From an uncultured Clostridium sp. (GTDB taxonomy: Bacteria; Bacillota; Clostridia; TANB77; CAG-508), in NCBI GenBank assembly GCA_930986425.1, contig CAKNJR010000009.1, positions 336 through 64,335 on the forward strand: DNA of 64,000 bases, given 5' to 3'. The notes under the pieces are model-generated. The model saw only the letters and a program-made list of their open reading frames with translations, was not told the origin of the DNA and ran no database searches. This document shows, one piece after another, positions 18,325 through 27,386 of the stretch (positions within the stretch are counted from its first letter, which is position 1; each line of letters opens with the position of its first letter). A program made the translations under genes and the position numbers.

Positions 18325-20301
18325 ATGGGGTTATCTAATTCATCTACTGGTAAAAAGGTTTCCAATAGTCTGAATGATTTTTCTAATTTTGATTTTACCG
18401 TAGCCATTGCTGGGAATCCTAATGTAGGCAAATCCACTATTTTCAATGGACTTACTGGGCTTAATCAACATACTGGTAATTGGACTGGTAAAACTGTTGA
18501 AAATGCAGCAGGCATTTGTATACATAATAATCAAAAATTTTTGTTGGTGGATATTCCTGGCACATATTCTCTTATGGCAGATTCTGAGGAAGAAAAAATT
18601 GCCAGAGATTACATAGATAGCAACAAAGCCAATGCTACTGTGGTTATTGTTGATGCTACTTTACTTGAAAGAAATTTGAATTTAGTTTTTCAGATTATGA
18701 ATTTGACTAATAATGTAATTGTTTGCGTTAATCTTCTTGATGAGGCTAAAAAGAAAGGCATCAGTATTGATTTAGATAAACTATCGTTACTTCTTGGAGT
18801 TCCTGTTGTTGGAACTATTGCTAGGAAGAAGAAGACTTTGAATCATTTGATTAATACTATTGCTGATGTATGTAATAAAAAAATAGAGCCTATGCCTAAT
18901 ATTATTGATATTGATAATACTCTTCTTGGAAATACAGAAACCAAAACTGATAGTTCAAATATAGAAACAAAAAATCAAGAAAAAATCTTCCTTGATAAAG
19001 TTTTTGAAAGAGCGCATGAAATTGTTGCAGAAGTTGTTACTGTTAAAGATGAAAATTATAATGAAAGAGATAAAAAGATTGATAGAATACTTACTTCTAA
19101 GAAGTTTGGTATTCCTATAATGATACTTTTCTTTTGTTTAATTTTTTGGATTACTATTGTAGGTGCTAACTATCCATCTGAATTATTGTCCGCTTTTTTT
19201 ACAAATATTGGACCTTATATCAGAGGATTTTTTGTATACATTCAAACTCCTTCTTGGCTAGTCTCTTTGCTTTTTGATGGAATTTACAAAACTGTTACTT
19301 GGATTGTTAGTGTTATGCTCCCTCCTATGGCAATATTTTTTCCACTTTTTACTTTATTAGAAGACTTGGGATATTTGCCTAGAATTGCTTTTAATTTGGA
19401 TAAATGTTTTAAGAAATGTTGTTCTTCTGGAAAGCAAGCCCTTACAATGTGCATGGGCTTTGGCTGTAATGCTGCTGGTGTTGTTGGATGCCGAATTATT
19501 AGTTCTAAAAGAGAAAGACTAATTGCCATACTTACTAATAATTTTGTACCTTGTAATGGCAGGTTTCCTTTCTTAATAACTATTGCCACAATATTTTTTA
19601 CTAGCGCCGCCCATGCTGGTGAGAGTCTAAAATCTAGCTTAATTGCTACTTTTATAGTTTTTATTATTGTATGCATTGGAATTGGTTTTACTTTTTTAGT
19701 TTCATACATACTTTCTAAAACTATTTTGAAAGGTGCTACTGATTGTACTTTGCTTGAACTTCCACCTTATAGAAAGCCTCAGATTGGTAAAATACTTGTA
19801 CATTCTCTTTTAGATAGAACTTTATTTGTTTTAGGAAGAGCTTTATCTGTTGCTGTTCCTGCAGGAATTTTAATATGGATTCTTTCTAATGTACAAATAG
19901 CTAATATCAGCATTCTTACTTATATTGCAAATTTCTTTGACCCATTTGCAAAACTTATGGGGCTAGATGGATATATTTTAACTGCATTTTTACTAGGCCT
20001 TCCTGCTAATGAAATTGTGCTTCCTATTATTCTTATGTGCTATACTGGTGCTGGAAGTCTTATTGATACTAGTAGTATTCAAAGTTTGTTTGAAATTTTA
20101 TCTGCAAATGGTTGGACTATAATTACTGCTATAAATGTTATGCTCTTTTCACTTTTACACTTTCCTTGTTCCACAACGCTTCTTACTATTAAAAATGAAA
20201 CAAAAAGTTGGAAATGGACTGCTATTGCATTTTTAATTCCTACTGTGATTGGTATTGTAATGTGCATGATGGTTAATTTGATTTACCACATCATTTTATA
20301 A
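18325..20301 (+). CDS. feoB: ferrous iron transporter FeoB
   Basis: 658 aa, with an N-terminal G domain (IAGNPNVGKSTIFNGLTG, DIPGTYSL) and a polytopic permease domain. Confidence 0.92.
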   Translation: MGLSNSSTGKKVSNSLNDFSNFDFTVAIAGNPNVGKSTIFNGLTGLNQHTGNWTGKTVENAAGICIHNNQKFLLVDIPGTYSLMADSEEEKIARDYIDSNKANATVVIVDATLLERNLNLVFQIMNLTNNVIVCVNLLDEAKKKGISIDLDKLSLLLGVPVVGTIARKKKTLNHLINTIADVCNKKIEPMPNIIDIDNTLLGNTETKTDSSNIETKNQEKIFLDKVFERAHEIVAEVVTVKDENYNERDKKIDRILTSKKFGIPIMILFFCLIFWITIVGANYPSELLSAFFTNIGPYIRGFFVYIQTPSWLVSLLFDGIYKTVTWIVSVMLPPMAIFFPLFTLLEDLGYLPRIAFNLDKCFKKCCSSGKQALTMCMGFGCNAAGVVGCRIISSKRERLIAILTNNFVPCNGRFPFLITIATIFFTSAAHAGESLKSSLIATFIVFIIVCIGIGFTFLVSYILSKTILKGATDCTLLELPPYRKPQIGKILVHSLLDRTLFVLGRALSVAVPAGILIWILSNVQIANISILTYIANFFDPFAKLMGLDGYILTAFLLGLPANEIVLPIILMCYTGAGSLIDTSSIQSLFEILSANGWTIITAINVMLFSLLHFPCSTTLLTIKNETKSWKWTAIAFLIPTVIGIVMCMMVNLIYHIIL

Positions 20302-20352
20302 ATTTCAGGCACAATTTCGTGATTTCAAAAATAATTAGCTTGTATTTAGTCG

Positions 20353-20382
20353 TAGAGCAGATTCGCGGTCTGCTCTATTTTT
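20353..20382 (+). terminator. rho-independent terminator of feoB
   Basis: tagagcaga (20353-20361) pairs with tctgctcta (20369-20377), followed by TTTTT. Confidence 0.8.
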
Positions 20383-20385
20383 ATG

Positions 20386-20421
20386 CAAAAAAATAGTATG
20401 TGCATTCGCGGTACACATACT
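20386..20421 (-). terminator. minus-strand rho-independent terminator closing the polymerase-toxSAS-PanA operon
   Basis: The agtatgtg / cacatact stem (20395-20402 and 20414-20421) is preceded on the plus strand by AAAAAAA, which is a U run on the minus strand. Confidence 0.65.
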
Positions 20422-20597
20422 TGTTACATCTTGAATAACTAGCGACATTCAAGATTCATTCACTTGTACTTAAATAATATCATATATTTTCTTATTTGTT
20501 AAGTAATTTTTCAAAAATTTATGTTCGATTATTTAAGCTTTGACTAGCATATGCTTTATTATAGTTTAGTTATTTTTTATTAATAAATGTTTCTATT

Positions 20598-21350
20598 TTA
20601 TACTTGTTCATTTTTATGAAATTCTTTAATTGTTTCTAATTTTATTTGCATATATGGTAACCATCTACTTCTAAATGTTTTACTCCAAGGAGTATCTTGC
20701 CTGTGCGTTATTTCTATCAACCTTGAAGCTGATAATTTTCCATATTTTTTTAATGTTCTATCTATACTTATTATCTTTTCTGTTCCATCTTCTGCAAACA
20801 TTATTCTACTTTTAGAAGGCATTTCATATATACCTTCACTTTTTATATCTCCTTTTTCTTCTTCTATTGGTTTGTATCCGTATTTTTTATATTTGTCATA
20901 AACCGTTTCTACCACTGGTCCATATTGAAATGCATATATTTTGTCTGTAAATAACTCTTTATCGGTTTCACATAAGTAATCCGCAAAACATAAGTAAACT
21001 AATTTTTGTAACTTTAGTTGTGTACATTTTACTTTTGATAATATATATTTGGCAACATCTATTCCTTCTAATTTTCTATCTTTTTGTATTAACCTTATAA
21101 ATTCATCAAGCCTTTTTACTACTTTTACATCTTTAAAGAAATGATCTGCTTCACATACTGATTCCCACGTTTCATCTTTTGCTTGTATCATATGAGTTGA
21201 AATTGAAACATCTTTTCCGCACTTTTGCACTATTTCATCTAAGTCTTTTTTTAATTTTTCTTGTATTTCTTTGTCATCTACAATAAAGTCCAATGCTATT
21301 CTTGTTCCTTTAGAATATGAACTACTCATAAATATAAAGTGTGTTACCAT
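20598..21350 (-). CDS. Panacea (DUF4065/SocA-like) domain antitoxin, PanA-type, with a ~95-aa unassigned N-terminal domain
   Basis: The C-terminal 150 aa, KLQKLVYLCFADYL...YAFQYGPVVETVYDKYKKYG...LSASRLIEITHRQDTPW, matches the DUF4065 pattern. A strong SD AAGGAGG is present. The ATG overlaps the upstream stop (TAATG). Confidence 0.7.
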   Translation of the reverse strand: MVTHFIFMSSSYSKGTRIALDFIVDDKEIQEKLKKDLDEIVQKCGKDVSISTHMIQAKDETWESVCEADHFFKDVKVVKRLDEFIRLIQKDRKLEGIDVAKYILSKVKCTQLKLQKLVYLCFADYLCETDKELFTDKIYAFQYGPVVETVYDKYKKYGYKPIEEEKGDIKSEGIYEMPSKSRIMFAEDGTEKIISIDRTLKKYGKLSASRLIEITHRQDTPWSKTFRSRWLPYMQIKLETIKEFHKNEQV

Positions 21351-21964
21351 TAGTTATTACCTCCTTTACTCTCATTTTCCCATCTTACATAGTCTTGTTT
21401 ATATTTTTCGTGAGATTTTATATTATTAATTTCATCCGATTTATTCCAAACTTGTAATTCCCATTGATAACTATAATTATCTTTTTTAAAATATATATGC
21501 ATTGCTTTGTATTCTTTTTTAGAAGAGTCTATGCATTTTAATTTATCAAACTTGTCTGTTATTAATTTCATAATTTGTTCTTTTGTAAGTTCTATTCCAC
21601 ATATAATTCTTATTCCAAACAAATCATTAAAGCATTTATTTATTGGTACTCTTCCATTTTCATGATTCTTTATATAGTTCTCCATCTTATATTCGATAGA
21701 GTTTTTAGCTTTTGCTCTAATATTAACTTTAGAATTTTCATTGTTAAATTGCTTAAAGTCCATTATTAATTGTATTATATTTTCATTTATAAAATCTCTG
21801 TATTGTATTATATTATTAAAATTTTCTTTATTATCTATTAAATCACATACTAAATTACTTTTTAAGTTTATCTTTTTGTAATTTATGCTGTTTTCCCATT
21901 TATCTGTTATATTATTATATTCTGATTGTATAAAATTAATAAGCTTTTCTAAATCTTCTATCAT
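21350..21964 (-). CDS. RelA/SpoT-homologue small alarmone synthetase-like toxin (toxSAS)
   Basis: RelA_SpoT nucleotidyltransferase motifs are present in order: RAKAKNSIEYK, DLFGIRIIC, YKAMHIYF, WELQVWN, SHEKYK. SD AAGAGGA lies before the ATG at 21964; the track GTG at 22018 has no SD. Confidence 0.7.
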   Translation of the reverse strand: MIEDLEKLINFIQSEYNNITDKWENSINYKKINLKSNLVCDLIDNKENFNNIIQYRDFINENIIQLIMDFKQFNNENSKVNIRAKAKNSIEYKMENYIKNHENGRVPINKCFNDLFGIRIICGIELTKEQIMKLITDKFDKLKCIDSSKKEYKAMHIYFKKDNYSYQWELQVWNKSDEINNIKSHEKYKQDYVRWENESKGGNN

Positions 21965-22022
21965 ATATATTTTCCTCTTTATAATTTTATCATATATTTT
22001 TTTTACATGCAATATCACCTTT

Positions 22023-22337
22023 TCACATTATCTCAATCTCTATTATATCAAAAAAATTAATAGCACTCGTAGTCACGATGATTGTTCTGTTAATTTTATC
22101 TATTTTATTTACCTTTCCCTTAATTTTGGTATATTTATTTCCATCATAATAAGTAATTTGCACAATTTTATTAGTATCTATTGCATTTAATTTCATTGAT
22201 AATTCTTCATTTGCTTCATCAGACAATTCTTTTCTTTTTATATGCACTTGCTCTTTTTCTTTTAATGCATCTTTAAATCCTGTTAATGCATCAAATGGCA
22301 TAAACTGCCTTGCTCGTTCTGCTCTAATCATAGGCAT
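22023..22337 (-). CDS. YolD-like protein (accessory factor of Y-family polymerases)
   Basis: 104 aa. The RA..FMPF.AL.G N-terminus is typical of YolD. It overlaps the 3' end of the polymerase gene by 14 nt. Confidence 0.75.
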   Translation of the reverse strand: MPMIRAERARQFMPFDALTGFKDALKEKEQVHIKRKELSDEANEELSMKLNAIDTNKIVQITYYDGNKYTKIKGKVNKIDKINRTIIVTTSAINFFDIIEIEIM

Positions 22338-23589
22338 TATGACCTCCTATCAATTTGTTTCTAAGTATTGTTGTAGCTCCATTTTCTAAATCCATGCCCC
22401 TTACTATTGCGTTTTTGCCTAACTTTTGTTTTATATTACTTATTGCTAATTCTATTCTTCTTTCTTTTGTAATTTTTTCTTGATTTTCAAATAAACTAAG
22501 TTGCTGTGCTTCATCGCTCACTAATCTGTTAAAGCTAACTCCTATTCTTCTTATTGGAACTGTTTTATTAGTTGTGCTATCATAAAGTTTTAGAAAATAA
22601 GCCATTAAATCTGAATATGTATTAGTATAGTTTGCCAATTTCATACTTCCGCCAGTTGAATTTATTATATTTTTTGAATATCCAATATACAAACCTATTG
22701 TGTCTGTTATTAGATTTTTTTCGACTAATTTTATGCTATTTAATTCAACCATTTCTTTTAGTACTAGTCTTGCATTTTCAAAACTGTAATCTTCAAATAA
22801 AACTTGACTATTGGATATTGAAGTGTTTTTAGTTTTGTAATTTTTTATATCTTTAATTGTACAAGTTTCTCTACCCCATGAATGGTCTATTAAAAATTCT
22901 GCATTTACTCCGAATTCTTTATATAATATTTTAGGATTTGTATGTGCTATATCATACATATCGTATATTCTTTTTTTATTAAGCCTTGCTTCAATTCCCC
23001 TTCCTATTTGCCAAAAGTCTGTTAAAGGTTTGTGATGCCAAAGTTTCCTTTTGTACAATTCTTCATCTAAATATCCTATATTAGTTGGAGTATGTTTTGA
23101 CATTATATCTAATGCTACTTTTGCTAAATATAGGTTAGTTCCAATTCCTACTGTTGCAGTTAAACCATATGTATTGTAAATGTCTTTTAAAATAGTTTTG
23201 GCAAGTTCTATTTCGTCCATTTTATATAATTTAAGATAGTTTGTTACATCTAAAAATGCCTCATCTATTGAATAAACATATATATCGTCTTTTGACAAAT
23301 ATTTTAAGTAGATTGCATAAATATTAGCTGAATATTCTATATATTTTTTCATCCTTGGTTTTGCTATTATATATTTTATATTTGGTGGTATTTCATAAAG
23401 CCTACACCTATTTTTGACTCCAAGCATTTTCATTTTTGGCGATACAGCTAGACAAATTGTACCTTTTCCTCTTGTTTCATCTGCTACTACTAGATTTGTA
23501 CTAAATGGGTCTAACTTTCTTTCTACACATTCTACTGAAGCGTAAAATGTTTTTAAGTCTATGCATAAGTATTTGCTCAATTTTTTCAC
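22324..23589 (-). CDS. Y-family DNA polymerase (UmuC/ImpB/PolY2-UvrX-like)
   Basis: 421 aa, with CIDLKTFYASVECV, SIDEAFLDVT and finger/little-finger architecture. It is distinct from the dinB at 7734. Confidence 0.85.
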   Translation of the reverse strand: MKKLSKYLCIDLKTFYASVECVERKLDPFSTNLVVADETRGKGTICLAVSPKMKMLGVKNRCRLYEIPPNIKYIIAKPRMKKYIEYSANIYAIYLKYLSKDDIYVYSIDEAFLDVTNYLKLYKMDEIELAKTILKDIYNTYGLTATVGIGTNLYLAKVALDIMSKHTPTNIGYLDEELYKRKLWHHKPLTDFWQIGRGIEARLNKKRIYDMYDIAHTNPKILYKEFGVNAEFLIDHSWGRETCTIKDIKNYKTKNTSISNSQVLFEDYSFENARLVLKEMVELNSIKLVEKNLITDTIGLYIGYSKNIINSTGGSMKLANYTNTYSDLMAYFLKLYDSTTNKTVPIRRIGVSFNRLVSDEAQQLSLFENQEKITKERRIELAISNIKQKLGKNAIVRGMDLENGATTILRNKLIGGHNAYD

Positions 23590-23675
23590 CTCTTTTTACT
23601 TTTAAAAAGTTTTAATCATTACCTTTTTAAGCTTGTATTTTAGGTACATTTTTGCTTTTATCAGTTACTTTTTAT

Positions 23676-23715
23676 ATTATATCATCGTACAAGTGTTTTG
23701 TAAACATATGTTCTC
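23676..23715 (-). promoter_or_regulatory. SOS-type promoter with one strong and one weak LexA (Cheo) box upstream of the Y-family polymerase operon
   Basis: The minus strand reads AGAACATATGTTTA (23715..23702 region), then TTTACA, an 18-nt spacer containing AAAACACTTGTACG, then TATAAT (23681..23676). Confidence 0.6.
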
Positions 23716-23802
23716 AAATTTGTTAGTAGAAATTTATTCCTTTTGGTTCATTTGCTCCTTTATTTATGGCTAATTAAATTAACTTAAAGCTTCTCCTAAC
23801 GC

Positions 23803-23847
23803 AAAAAGAACTTTAGGGAGTATTCATCTCTCTCTAAAGTTCTTTTT
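23803..23847. terminator. bidirectional rho-independent terminator
   Basis: A 13+ bp stem aaaagaactttag / ctaaagttctttt is flanked by an A run and a T run. It lies just downstream of the minus-strand gene ending at 23852. Confidence 0.8.
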
Positions 23848-23851
23848 ATTT

Positions 23852-25399
23852 TTATTTATAAATAAGTACAAAATATCTTATTCTTTCTTTTTCATAATCT
23901 GACTCATAATTATTAAATTTTTCATTTGCCAATATTATTTCATCGTCTTGCAAGTTATCTATTTTTTCTTGTACTTCTTCTGCTGTTGTTAATCTAATAT
24001 ACTCTTTTGTTTCATCATTTCCCAATGTTAAATAGTATGTGTATCTCCCCCTAGGGTCAGTATCATCAAAATATACCTTCTTTTTATCTGTGTCATTTGC
24101 ATATATTAAGCTTTGATAAAATCCGTTTGAAAAGCATGTTGACATGTCTATTTTTGGTACATGATATTTATAAAAATATACTGAAAATAGTATAAATAAA
24201 ATTGCATATACTGCTATTGCATCATATTTGAAAACTTTTTTATTTTTTACTTCTTTATATGTTGCCCATATTCCTAGTGTTCCTATGGCTATAAGTACAT
24301 ACCAAATAGAGTTTAGCCTATTTGCATTTGTTTGATTTACTAAAAATCCTGTTAATGTACTCAATGTTAGCCAAGTGATTAACATTACTGATGATGTTTT
24401 ATCTTCATCAGATTTCTTCTTTAGTCTCTTCACGATATCTATTATTCCAAGTACCACAAATACTAAAGTTATATGATATGTTGTTCCAAATAATGATGTT
24501 GTATTCCATAAAATTTTGTCATCTTGAAGTATTATTAATGAGAATGTATCAAGTATATTTTGCAATAATTGCTCTAATTTATTCTCTGAAAATAATAACA
24601 TATCTGTTGTTCTATTTAGATTTTCATAGAATGGTATAGTTATATTGAATATTGTTATTGTTTTGTTTATTCCCAAACCATTTAAAAAGAACATTGTTAC
24701 AATAGGCAATGCAAAGAATATGAATATTGCTATACATACTATTAAATCTGGTATTCTTAATTTTTTCTTTTTTACTAAATATATTGCCATAATCAACAAG
24801 AAAAATGGAACAAAATAGATTGCAATTCCATAGCAATATAATGTTAATGCAAAGAAAAACATCGATAAGTAAATTAAGCCTCTTCTCTTTTCTTTAAGCC
24901 CTGTAACTAGTATGTCCATTGCAAATAGTAAAAAATGTGGAAACATATTACAGTCCAATGACCAAATTGATTGCATTATATGCCATGGTGATATAACTAA
25001 AAGTCCTAATCCTACTAATGCCACATTTTTATTATCCATTATTTTCTTTATAAAATCATAAAATACTACTAAAGAGATTATGCTAATTATTAATGTTGGG
25101 ATTCTTATAGCAAATAGTGTGTAACCAAAAATTTTCACACATATTGCCATCAAATATACAAGAACTACACTTTGTCCTCCCCAACCTAATAAATAAACTG
25201 GAAAGCTTTGTCCTAAAATATCTTTTCCTGTTTCTGCAATTGATTTTGCATTTACAGCTGTCATTATCTCATCAATATTTATTTCCGGAATTCCCTCTGG
25301 AAAATTCCAAACTCTTACGATTATTCCTATTATTAATAATATTGTGAATATAATTTTAGTATAATTCTTTTTTATTGCTTCTTTAAACTTTTCTTTCAT
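23852..25399 (-). CDS. polytopic glycosyltransferase, GT39/ArnT-PMT-like
   Basis: 515 aa with about 11 TM helices in the N-terminal 400 aa and a soluble C-terminal domain. This topology is typical of lipid-linked sugar transferases. The assignment rests on pattern only. Confidence 0.45.
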   Translation of the reverse strand: MKEKFKEAIKKNYTKIIFTILLIIGIIVRVWNFPEGIPEINIDEIMTAVNAKSIAETGKDILGQSFPVYLLGWGGQSVVLVYLMAICVKIFGYTLFAIRIPTLIISIISLVVFYDFIKKIMDNKNVALVGLGLLVISPWHIMQSIWSLDCNMFPHFLLFAMDILVTGLKEKRRGLIYLSMFFFALTLYCYGIAIYFVPFFLLIMAIYLVKKKKLRIPDLIVCIAIFIFFALPIVTMFFLNGLGINKTITIFNITIPFYENLNRTTDMLLFSENKLEQLLQNILDTFSLIILQDDKILWNTTSLFGTTYHITLVFVVLGIIDIVKRLKKKSDEDKTSSVMLITWLTLSTLTGFLVNQTNANRLNSIWYVLIAIGTLGIWATYKEVKNKKVFKYDAIAVYAILFILFSVYFYKYHVPKIDMSTCFSNGFYQSLIYANDTDKKKVYFDDTDPRGRYTYYLTLGNDETKEYIRLTTAEEVQEKIDNLQDDEIILANEKFNNYESDYEKERIRYFVLIYK

Positions 25400-25465
25400 T
25401 TTTTCCCCTAACCGTTACTTTATTTGCCTTTGACATTTTTGTTTCATAATTAGTTTTCTACCAAT

Positions 25466-26191
25466 TTATACTTTTTCTTCTTGCATATTTGTATCTTTAT
25501 TCATTTCTTCATTATATAGTTTCTTTATTCTTCTCTCAAGTTTCATTTTTCTGTATACTCTATTTTTCAATTCTTGTACATTTGCTTTTGAAATTTCTGT
25601 TTTTGGATATTCTGGTTCTAGTATTGTCAAAGTTATAAAAGGTTTTCTTTTTATAAATCTAATTATTCCTTCTGGTTCTCTATAAGTAAAAACTATTGGT
25701 AAAATTGGCACTTGATTTCTTACCGCAAAGTTGAAAGCACCATTTTTAAATTCTCTTATTCCATCATAATATGGTATTAAATGTCCCTCTGGATAAATTC
25801 CTACGATTTCTCCTCTTCTTAGTAATCCATCTATTGTATTTACCATCTTCTCTTTCCCAGACTTTTTTCTTGGTATTGGTATTCCTCTAAAAAGCATTAC
25901 TAAATATTTTATAAATGGTATTTCTAAATTTGATTGAAGTGTTAAAAAATATGGTATTCTTGGAAAAATAGCGAGTGCTATCATTGCGCAATCTATCATA
26001 TTAATATGGTTTGCGACTGTAATATATTCATCTCCCATTTTACTTAAATTTTCTCTTCCTTCTACTTTCAATCCTAGCCATAGCTTTGTTACTAAAAATA
26101 AAATAGGATAAGCAATTAAATATAATAAACTACTTAATATTTTATAAATTAATGAATGATGCAATAAGTCCCCTCTCTTATTCATTCTCAT
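25466..26191 (-). CDS. 1-acyl-sn-glycerol-3-phosphate acyltransferase family protein
   Basis: NHINMIDC (HX4D) and GIYPEGH motifs of the PlsC family. Confidence 0.8.
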   Translation of the reverse strand: MRMNKRGDLLHHSLIYKILSSLLYLIAYPILFLVTKLWLGLKVEGRENLSKMGDEYITVANHINMIDCAMIALAIFPRIPYFLTLQSNLEIPFIKYLVMLFRGIPIPRKKSGKEKMVNTIDGLLRRGEIVGIYPEGHLIPYYDGIREFKNGAFNFAVRNQVPILPIVFTYREPEGIIRFIKRKPFITLTILEPEYPKTEISKANVQELKNRVYRKMKLERRIKKLYNEEMNKDTNMQEEKV

Positions 26192-26252
26192 CTATCCTTT
26201 CTTTACTTTTGCTTCTTTTTTTAGGCCTTTTTGAATATTTTTATAGCATTCT

Positions 26253-27386
26253 TTATTTTATGTTTTTGTATTCTTCTATTTCTTCTTTAAACATTTCTTC
26301 CATTAATTTTACACTATTTTCTATTCTAAATCGATTAGCGAATTCTGCATATTCTTTTCTTTTTTTCTCTAAAATGTTAGGATTATCTAAAAAGTAATCT
26401 ATTTTTTTAGCCAAATTTTCACTATTGCCATGTTCAAATAAGCTGTCTTCGTCCATTGCAAATTGTACAGTTGCTGATTCATTACTGTTTGATATTATTG
26501 GTACATTTCCACATGCAATTGCTTCTAAGCAAGATATAGCCTCTATTTCTGCATCTGCACTATGTACATATATATCTGTATAAGATAATAAATTTACTAA
26601 ATCGTCTTTTGGATAAAATTTCAATATTGGTTTATTGGTAAGTTCTTCTGACTTCTTTTTGTATTCTTCAAAGCATTGGCCTTTTCCTGCTAATACTAAT
26701 TGAATTTTATTTTCATATTTAGATTTTTTTATTGCATCAATTAGTACATCTTGTCTTTTTTCTGGTGAATATCTTCCTACCATTGTAATTATTATTTTAT
26801 TCTTTAATTCTTCTGGCTTTTCAATTCTTGCAAACTTAAATTCTTCTCCAATACCATTGGAAATTACATGTAATTTTGCAGTATATCCATGTTCTTTTAA
26901 TTGGTTGGCGATGAAGTTGCTTGGGCAATGTATATGTCTAAATTTATTGTAGTAGTTTCTAAAATATGTGTATATTGTATCATTTATATGATGGTTAGTT
27001 CCTAATCCTACTGCATAAGTTATATTTTCTGGTTGAACATGAAAAGCTGTTGTATGAGGTATATGCATTTCTTCTGCAATTTTTACACCTTTTTTAGCTA
27101 GTCTAAATGGCATGTAGAAGTGTATTACATCTTGATTTTGGAAAACATTTTTCATTACTTCTTCATCTGGTTTTGCAAATACCATTTCATTTGCTTTAAA
27201 ATATTTATCTATTATTTTAGGAAATTTGTATGTTTTTAATGAGAATTTATCTGCTCCATTTTTCCCTGTGCTTAATATTTGTACTTCATTTCCTGCTTTT
27301 CTTAATCCGTCTACAAATCTTTTTGCTGAAATAGTTGTTCCATTACTTAAATTATCATACTGGTCAATTACAATTAATATTTTCAT
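26253..27386 (-). CDS. glycosyltransferase family 4 (GT-B), possibly a glycolipid synthase
   Basis: 377 aa with an MKILIV...NGTT N-terminus and a GT1/GT4 C-terminal E(X7)E-like region (SADAEIEAISCLEAIACG). It is adjacent to an acyltransferase. Confidence 0.7.
   Translation of the reverse strand: MKILIVIDQYDNLSNGTTISAKRFVDGLRKAGNEVQILSTGKNGADKFSLKTYKFPKIIDKYFKANEMVFAKPDEEVMKNVFQNQDVIHFYMPFRLAKKGVKIAEEMHIPHTTAFHVQPENITYAVGLGTNHHINDTIYTYFRNYYNKFRHIHCPSNFIANQLKEHGYTAKLHVISNGIGEEFKFARIEKPEELKNKIIITMVGRYSPEKRQDVLIDAIKKSKYENKIQLVLAGKGQCFEEYKKKSEELTNKPILKFYPKDDLVNLLSYTDIYVHSADAEIEAISCLEAIACGNVPIISNSNESATVQFAMDEDSLFEHGNSENLAKKIDYFLDNPNILEKKRKEYAEFANRFRIENSVKLMEEMFKEEIEEYKNIK

Follow-up and report, generated by a model that had tools for sequence, protein, structure and literature searches.

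A toxSAS-Panacea toxin-antitoxin cassette behind a LexA-boxed translesion polymerase operon in a gut Clostridium, and a candidate SOS promoter in related cassettes

Introduction

When a toxin-antitoxin (TA) pair lies immediately behind a translesion polymerase operon, do the genes form a single SOS-controlled unit, or have two units come to lie side by side? The question is raised by four minus-strand genes in a 64,000-nt stretch of DNA from an uncultured Clostridium sp. (assembly GCA_930986425.1, contig CAKNJR010000009.1, positions 336 to 64,335; this whole stretch is referred to as the window), which encode a Y-family DNA polymerase, a YolD-like protein, a toxSAS toxin and a PAD1-Panacea antitoxin (PanA). 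A preliminary description of this locus proposed one LexA-controlled operon forming a compact accessory island. The explanation favored here, and held to be probable, is that two separate units are arranged head to tail and that the TA pair is transcribed both from a promoter of its own (P2) and by read-through from the LexA-controlled promoter of the polymerase gene. The evidence comprises a natural presence/absence polymorphism of the TA pair, the conservation of promoter elements in related loci and the lack of a recognizable terminator between the two units.

Gene content and natural polymorphism of the locus

The genes of the locus and the TA cassette that they include are as follows.

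22324..23589, minus strand: Y-family DNA polymerase (Pfam IMS, IMS_C), open reading frame (ORF) from GTG 23589; the likelier start is TTG 23580, giving 22324..23580
22023..22337, minus strand: YolD-like protein, 104 aa (Pfam PF08863)
21350..21964, minus strand: toxSAS toxin, 204 aa, PhRel2/FaRel2-like
20598..21350, minus strand: PAD1-Panacea antitoxin (PanA), 250 aa (SocA_Panacea)
20520..22024, minus strand: TA cassette, 1.5 kb, with bounds taken from the natural presence/absence polymorphism

The four genes are flanked by feoB (18325-20301, plus strand) on one side and by a PMT_2 glycosyltransferase gene (23852-25399, minus strand) on the other. The polymerase and yolD genes share 14 nt (22324-22337); a gap of 58 nt (22022-21965) separates yolD from toxSAS, with a Shine-Dalgarno sequence (AGAGGA, 21978-21973) 8 nt ahead of the toxSAS ATG; and the TAA stop of toxSAS overlaps the ATG start of panA as TAATG at 21350. 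These junctions agree with the preliminary description, and so do the identities of the four genes, which are borne out by Pfam matches (IMS/IMS_C, YolD, SocA_Panacea) and, for toxSAS, by FaRel2 matches and sequence motifs. The likelier polymerase start, TTG 23580, is preceded by the Shine-Dalgarno sequence AAGAGGTG, and gene callers assign the protein a length of 418 aa. A tRNA search of the window returned zero tRNAs, and hence no tRNA-linked island; PADLOC matched none of the four locus proteins.

The TA pair is a separate within-species polymorphism. In the TA-less contigs L014-L021 (compared contigs and loci are numbered with the prefix L) a YolD identical to that of the window is followed directly by convergent feoB, and alignment of L014-16, L018, L020 and L021 joins window position 22025, inside the yolD stop codon, to ~20519, which constitutes a clean indel. 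The cassette delimited in this way contains the 58-nt leader with P2, toxSAS, panA and a tail of ~78 nt without a terminator. The four-gene form also occurs in L022-L029 and in L030, L022 matching the window at 100% identity throughout the region, while one chicken-gut metatranscriptome sample has the TA-less junction; at least four allelic states of the yolD-feoB spacer were recorded. No integrase, direct repeats or target duplication was seen at the indel junctions. Given that the TA pair adjoins feoB in other species, an old resident cassette with later deletions appears as plausible as a recent insertion.

The distribution of the family was examined in a scan that used one genome per species and yielded 59 loci encoding this toxSAS family. 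PanA lies directly downstream of toxSAS in all 59, a conserved two-gene module, whereas the polymerase and YolD genes precede the pair in a single locus, that of the species from which the window comes (represented by a metagenome-assembled genome of an uncultured gut Clostridium), and even there the order is polymorphic. Elsewhere the pair follows an alaS-like gene or an ABC transporter, or lies between feoB and feoA, and several of the scanned loci hold an intact PanA beside a decayed toxin. The polymerase/TA linkage is therefore species-specific and strain-variable, and the compact ~3.3-kb accessory island first proposed gives way to a 1.5-kb cassette that varies on its own.

As a separate observation, the TA pair adjoins feoB in at least 12 species (L005-L013, L036, L042, L049, L051, L052, L074, L083-L088 and the window) in three arrangements: convergent with feoB, on the same strand downstream of feoB, or between feoB and feoA. 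This recurrence could be due to shared ancestry of the site or to a recurrent target.

Promoters and terminators of the locus

Three transcriptional elements of the region are needed for what follows.

23676..23714, minus strand: polY-yolD promoter with two LexA (Cheo)-type boxes, from a promoter scan and box search
21984..22012, minus strand: candidate promoter P2, from conservation of its extended -10
20395..20502, minus strand: small promoter/two-hairpin/terminator unit; its second hairpin (20421-20395) is the first terminator downstream of the operon

The polymerase matches Pfam IMS (E 3.2e-28) and IMS_C (E 8.1e-16) and has both the Y-family core and the little-finger domain. No NCBIfam Pol IV/UmuC model reaches its cutoff (best PRK03103, 215 bits vs 381), and by these comparisons the protein is a YolD-associated PolY and not a DinB orthologue or equivalog. 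Its partner belongs to the YolD family (PF08863, E 1.4e-11, 44.7 bits vs a cutoff of 27.5) and adjoins a Y-family polymerase; NCBIfam gave no match for it. The polY-yolD pair is an ordinary Firmicute PolY-YolD module.

The best sigma-70-type promoter match in 20200-24000 is that of the polymerase gene (11/12 plus TG), which consists of a -35 TTTACA (23704-23699), a 17-nt spacer and an extended -10 TGaTATAAT (23684-23676). Box 1, GAACATATGTTT (23713-23702), overlaps the -35, and the weaker box 2, AAACACTTGTAC (23698-23687), fills most of the spacer, as the first reading of the sequence had noted; a GAAC-N4-GTTC-type palindrome, the form of the Firmicutes Cheo box, is accordingly present on the core promoter of polY. 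The window contains 6 copies of GAAC-N4-GTTY vs 1.7 expected, a number reached by 3 of 100 shuffles. The TA-less strain L014 keeps the polY box with another N4 (GAACAAGTGTTT), and there the two boxes together make up a perfect inverted repeat of 10 nt. Judged by these elements, polY-yolD has a sigma-A promoter covered by two Cheo-type boxes and is most likely under LexA repression that DNA damage relieves.

Upstream of this promoter, directly after the PMT_2 stop codon, the minus strand has an inverted repeat (aaagaactttag ... ctaaagttcttt) with a T-run behind it (23805-23845). The repeat was left unlisted by the terminator scan on account of its few G-C pairs, and probably terminates the PMT_2 gene and insulates the polymerase promoter. 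A further indel beside the locus was seen in L023, L024 and L026 (~95% identity): compared with window 23852-27386, they have neither the PMT_2 nor the GT4 glycosyltransferase gene upstream of the polymerase operon.

The polymerase promoter had been regarded as the only convincing one of the four-gene block, a view that P2 does not sustain. Within the 58-nt gap, P2 consists of a -35-like TTGCAT (22012-22007), a 17-nt spacer and the extended -10 TGATAAAAT (TGaTAAAAT, 21992-21984), followed by the Shine-Dalgarno sequence; the predicted transcription start, near 21977, lies right ahead of that sequence. In four genomic contexts unrelated to one another, where the toxins are only 67-75% identical, the element TGATAAAAT(A/T)TATA recurs 18-26 nt ahead of the start codon, and TGnTAnAAT is found 23-36 nt upstream of toxSAS in 29 of 43 full-length species loci; among the other 14 are several with classical TTGACA/TATAAT promoters at the position of P2. 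Its conservation suggests that P2 drives the cassette independently. An internal promoter for the pair had been named beforehand as an observation that would speak against a single operon, and P2 is such an element at the level of sequence, with a predicted activity.

The terminator scan found no terminator-like site from 23676 down to the hairpin at 20421-20395, and the earlier statement that none occurs before 20421 holds. RNA folding compared with shuffles gave z values of -0.24 for the gap and +0.67 for the cassette tail, i.e., no stable structure in either. One metatranscriptome contig from chicken gut spans 23578-21967 and crosses the yolD-toxSAS junction; it is unstranded.

The unit at 20395..20502 has the promoter TTAACA-17-TGaTATTAT (with TTGACA in TA-less alleles) and a fold z of -2.48. 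It follows yolD directly in TA-less alleles, although L017 has a version with another middle part and L019 has none; the unit is a resident of the spacer, outside the TA cassette. Rfam gave no family match over 20340-20620, the small hairpin unit included, and the unit may encode a small RNA convergent with feoB. Homologous recombination between P2 and the promoters of such units, which have the 13-mer AAAATATATGATA in common, was considered as an origin of the indel and rejected, as the junctions lie outside the 13-mer.

The toxin and the antitoxin

In the Pfam searches that the preliminary description had called for, the IMS, YolD and DUF4065/Panacea assignments stood, while RelA_SpoT itself stayed below threshold for the toxin (23.6 bits, under the gathering score of 27). 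The toxSAS assignment nevertheless holds because most of 433 homologs have a precomputed PF04607 match, because FaRel2, a tRNA-modifying toxSAS, is the best match both in a phmmer search of the PDB (E 8e-8) and by fold, and because the synthetase motifs of RelA/SpoT homologs are invariant in the family: R83xK85, S89, K93, D114xxGxR119, Y152xxxH156 and E169xQ171 (RxKxxxSxxxK, DxxGxR, YxxxH, ExQ). The AlphaFold model of the toxin (predicted local distance difference test, pLDDT, 80.5) has FaRel2 as its top five Foldseek matches (prob 1.0, TM 0.70, normalized to target length), followed by RelQ, RelP, Rel and CapRel (prob 0.99-1.0). A RelA/SpoT synthetase domain is thereby recognized; NCBIfam gave no match for the toxin.

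Over its full length the toxin shares ~32% identity with proteins of Paenibacillus, Geobacillus and Streptococcus phages, among them the toxSAS of Paenibacillus larvae phages (relatives of phage Lily). On the basis of this identity and of the pairing with PAD1-PanA, the toxin is described as PhRel2/FaRel2-like. It is likely a tRNA 3'-CCA pyrophosphokinase that blocks aminoacylation, as predicted from the PAD1 pairing and the similarity to FaRel2/PhRel2 (PMC11782079). The pair is a further member of the known toxSAS / PAD1-PanA kind, of which homologs are carried as morons by Paenibacillus, Geobacillus and Streptococcus phages.

The antitoxin has a Panacea/DUF4065 domain at residues 114-222 (SocA_Panacea PF13274, E 7.7e-20, 72 bits vs a cutoff of 25.7), preceded by an N-terminal region of ~100 aa that is highly conserved across homologs, with His4, His53 and His70 invariant. 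It aligns over its full length, N-terminus included, with gp24 of Paenibacillus phage Bloom, the partner of a toxSAS (36% identity, E 7e-47). The AlphaFold model is poor outside the N-terminal domain (pLDDT 51), so that the structural comparison covers this domain (pLDDT ~75), for which the top three Foldseek matches are ATfaRel2, a pZFD antitoxin (prob 0.97, though with E 0.06); PanA had no match in a sequence search of the PDB. In characterized pairs PAD1 alone neutralizes PhRel2 via the ATP-donor site, and the Panacea domain has been proposed to sense the trigger (PMC11782079, PMC8832971).

A side observation concerns loci L071, L072 and L080-L088, where the toxin gene is truncated or almost gone and the 250-aa PanA is intact. 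These orphan antitoxins suggest repeated loss of the toxin with retention of the antitoxin.

A LexA-type promoter in related cassettes

Many cassettes of the family have, upstream of P2, a further, near-consensus promoter (P1) of the form TTGACA-N5-[RAAC-N4-GTTY]-TATWAT, in which the 17-nt spacer is made up of 5 nt and a 12-nt palindrome. The palindrome occurs within 200 nt of toxSAS in 21 of 43 loci, with ~0.9 expected at the background of 0.108 per kb. The full P1, searched as TTGACA-N5-[RAAC-N4-GTTY]-TAnnnT to 1.5 kb upstream of panA, is present in 29 of 55 species loci and in 28 distinct sequences; flanks, 5-nt spacer and box center vary, and the half-sites are retained, with an extension to AACA-NN-TGTT, the core of the Cheo box. 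Part of this conservation is circular, as hexamers and half-sites were fixed by the search pattern, the independent part being the variable positions and the AACA..TGTT extension. In 820 kb of compared DNA the P1 pattern has 45 matches, all at TA cassettes except for a DinB-like gene of the window and one other ORF.

Two genes of the window outside the locus bear on the identity of the box.

7734-8915, minus strand, promoter 8961-8933: second Y-family polymerase, DinB-like (IMS, IMS_C, IMS_HHH_1)
17242-18034, minus strand: YgjP/SprT/WLM-like metallopeptidase, with a TTGACA-17-TAAAAT promoter

The promoter of the DinB-like gene has exactly the P1 design (TTGACA-aataa-AAACAAACGTTC-TATAAT, 8961-8933). 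In the peptidase gene, GAACAGAAGTTC (17998-17987) stands right after the -10, at the predicted start site, and the box is kept in 7 related contigs; the product is possibly an SOS-regulated protease of DNA-protein crosslink repair. The recA gene of L042 (minus strand, start at plus-strand coordinate 1691) has the promoter TTGACA-16-TATAAT with AAACAAAAGTTC 9 nt past the -10, and is the one recA example by which the box was calibrated on canonical SOS genes. The same motif is therefore found at recA, at the DinB-like gene of the window and at polY of other strains. Because it also occurs at DinB-like, YgjP/SprT-like, recA and polY genes, the RAAC-N4-GTTY palindrome is most simply read as the LexA operator of this lineage, one that the TA family would commonly carry.

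In one group of species P1 would drive a gene for an RNase H-like protein of 157 aa (RVT_3, E 8e-8), which lies between P1 and P2-toxSAS-panA in L042 (4496-4969) and also in L048, L049, L084, L085, L087 and L088; loci without the gene (L005-L013, L052) still have short remnants of its start (ATGGAATATATAATATTTG) between the two promoters. This suggests that the ancestral unit was P1 / rnh-like gene / P2 / toxSAS / panA.

The SOS link first suggested for the pair remains plausible, although it is better supported by the P1 of the family than by adjacency to the polymerase, and the window copy has no P1. For the toxin family as a whole, a link to DNA damage is plausible in view of these boxes. 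A more far-reaching proposal can be put forward only tentatively, and we regard it as somewhat less likely to hold than to fail: a subfamily of PhRel2-type toxSAS / PAD1-PanA modules in gut Clostridia would belong to the LexA regulon, with the ancestral order P1, RNase H-like gene, P2, toxSAS and panA, and the window species would have lost P1 and regained an SOS input by its position behind polY. If so, DNA damage or phage-induced SOS would directly raise transcription of a tRNA-CCA-pyrophosphorylating toxin system, and the window species would have reached the same wiring by a second, independent route, arguing that the SOS input is selected for.

Some observations on other promoters and genes may be recorded here. 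In L060 (minus strand) a 259-aa ORF with a weak PemK/MazF-like match (E 0.04) starts 19 nt past TTGACATTTGCAAACATAAGTTTTATAAT, a P1-type LexA-box promoter, and may be a further SOS-boxed toxin-like gene. The toxSAS promoters of the phages Bloom and GBSV1 were inspected and have no LexA boxes. Upstream of the toxSAS of Paenibacillus phage Bloom (L089:2300-2400) there are two copies of TGTGATATCAT, one of them over a TTGACA promoter, which may be an autoregulatory operator; a similar sequence, GGTGATATTG, is present at window 22019-22010. The ORF for ribosomal protein L19 at window 8967-9494 (minus strand) encodes 175 aa, of which the Pfam domain takes up residues 2-111 only, leaving a C-terminal extension of ~60 aa that is charged.

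Proposed regulation and alternative explanations

In the explanation that is considered probable, the first unit is polY-yolD, on which LexA would act as repressor through the two Cheo-type boxes, with induction upon DNA damage. The second, beginning right at the yolD stop codon, is the 1.5-kb PhRel2-type toxSAS / PAD1-PanA cassette, whose toxin, by homology, would pyrophosphorylate tRNA at its 3'-CCA end and stop translation, whereas the PAD1 domain of the antitoxin would block the ATP site of the toxin and the Panacea domain may act as sensor of a trigger. Two inputs would reach the cassette, a constitutive and probably autoregulated one from P2 and, once DNA is damaged, a second one from polymerase transcripts that start at the LexA-boxed promoter and read through, as the absence of a terminator between yolD and toxSAS would allow. 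The window cassette appears to have lost P1, and its relatives commonly have a P1 with a LexA-type box in the spacer.

Several points weigh against this explanation. The -35 of P2 is poor (3/6) and its predicted leader very short. The metatranscriptome data place the locus in RNA libraries, but consist of assembler contigs without strand information, to which DNA may have contributed, and they cannot decide co-transcription or start sites. The window cassette lacks P1, so that the case for SOS control made at the family level cannot be transferred directly to it; over half of the P1 boxes read AAAC...GTTT, with both half-sites weaker than the classical GAAC...GTTC; and no lexA gene was located, LexA binding being read from the box sequence. 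Finally, transcription of a TA operon can rise without freeing the toxin (LeRoux et al., 2020, as cited in PMC11782079).

One alternative is that the adjacency is a neutral accident at a variable yolD-feoB spot, with the TA pair transcribed solely from an autoregulated P2 and no productive read-through from the polymerase gene. The conservation of P2, the allelic diversity of the spacer, a hotspot, and the occurrence of the cassette at many unrelated sites elsewhere all fit this view, and Rho-dependent termination or RNA processing would be invisible to sequence scans. It is nonetheless thought improbable, as the 58-nt gap has neither an intrinsic terminator nor stable structure, the analogous read-through from PdinB occurs in Escherichia coli (PMC2814082) and the family-wide P1 boxes suggest that an SOS input has been selected.

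Another alternative, to which a similarly low probability is assigned, holds that the P1 palindrome is the operator of another repressor, either the TA complex acting through PAD1 or a lineage-specific regulator, and that the TA family has no SOS link. In its favor are the prevalence of AAAC...GTTT boxes and the fact that no lexA gene was located, and DNA binding by PAD1 was once proposed (PMC8832971). Against it, PAD1 has since been given the role of a toxin-binding pZFD (PMC11782079), boxes of the same type occur at recA, polY-yolD, the SprT-like peptidase gene and, in an identical promoter design, the DinB-like gene, none of which encode PanA, and the extended palindrome AACA-NN-TGTT fits the Cheo consensus.

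That the four genes form one dedicated LexA-controlled operon, a single 3.3-kb island with the polymerase promoter as sole driver of the pair, is very unlikely, for although the shared strand, tight spacing, lack of a terminator, strong upstream promoter and junction-spanning metatranscriptome contig are in its favor, the pair is an indel of its own, linked to pol/yolD in one of 59 species and preceded by a conserved promoter-like element in the gap, and pol-yolD has the same LexA-box promoter in TA-less strains.

Comparison with known systems

The preferred explanation, two units with a read-through input to the second, has a close precedent. In the E. coli dinB-yafN-yafO-yafP operon the LexA-controlled PdinB induces the TA mRNA on DNA damage and the TA genes also have a proximal promoter (PMC2814082); the gene content of the dinB operon varies between E. 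coli strains (PMC3105422). That a TA pair can be coupled under SOS control to a translesion polymerase, presented at first as if new, is thus already known, with the same two-promoter layout (PMC2814082). The locus resembles this operon in having a Y-family polymerase with a LexA-type promoter followed on the same strand by a TA pair predicted to inhibit translation, with a proximal promoter that is a candidate read from sequence. The systems differ in that the E. coli toxin YafO is a ribosome-dependent mRNA interferase and the antitoxin gene comes first, whereas in the window the toxSAS gene comes first, the antitoxin is of the PAD1-Panacea type and the polymerase has a YolD partner; the hosts are Proteobacteria and Clostridia, respectively.

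The TA pair itself is most similar to PhRel2 : PAD1-PanA (ATphRel2) of Bacillus subtilis Ia1a, Clostridium hylemonae and Paenibacillus phage Lily, in which a small toxSAS is followed by an antitoxin of ~250 aa with PAD1 and Panacea domains. The mechanism expected for the window pair, as for these, is tRNA CCA pyrophosphorylation, neutralized by PAD1 at the ATP-donor site (PMC11782079, PMC8832971). The Paenibacillus phage pair and that of the window share ~32% (toxin) and 36% (antitoxin, E 7e-47) identity over the full length. Unlike the phage modules, the window pair is chromosomal, in uncultured gut Clostridia with no recognizable prophage, and its family often has a LexA-box promoter; none is present in the two phage promoters inspected or mentioned in the toxSAS/Panacea papers found, and no relevant paper emerged when the literature was searched for toxSAS or Panacea in combination with LexA.

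Among solved structures, FaRel2 : ATfaRel2 of Coprobacillus sp. D7 comes closest in sequence (E 8e-8) and in fold, with a toxin identity of only ~23%; ATfaRel2 is also the best match of the N-terminal domain of the window antitoxin, but is a stand-alone pZFD of ~75 aa without a Panacea domain. As regards the polymerase unit, YolD-UvrX (in SPbeta) and YqzH-YqjW of B. subtilis likewise combine a Y-family polymerase with a YolD-family protein under a Cheo-box promoter. The polY-yolD unit differs from these pairs in that the polymerase gene comes first, no prophage context is seen and a TA cassette is appended.

The trigger of toxSAS-PanA systems in the cell is an acknowledged open question despite good biochemistry (PMC11782079). 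A LexA-type operator in the cassettes of ~30 species would provide a concrete upstream signal, DNA damage or phage-caused SOS; if the boxes are non-functional, this would be just another PanA-toxSAS pair that landed beside a polymerase operon. Relative to the systems above, two features appear new from the sequences compared, namely a LexA-type operator in the promoter of a toxSAS-PanA subfamily in ~30 species and a second route to LexA wiring in the window species, and together they would carry the dinB-yafNO paradigm, in which SOS response, mutagenic polymerase and a halt of translation go together, beyond Proteobacteria into Clostridia, where the toxin would act by a different mechanism.

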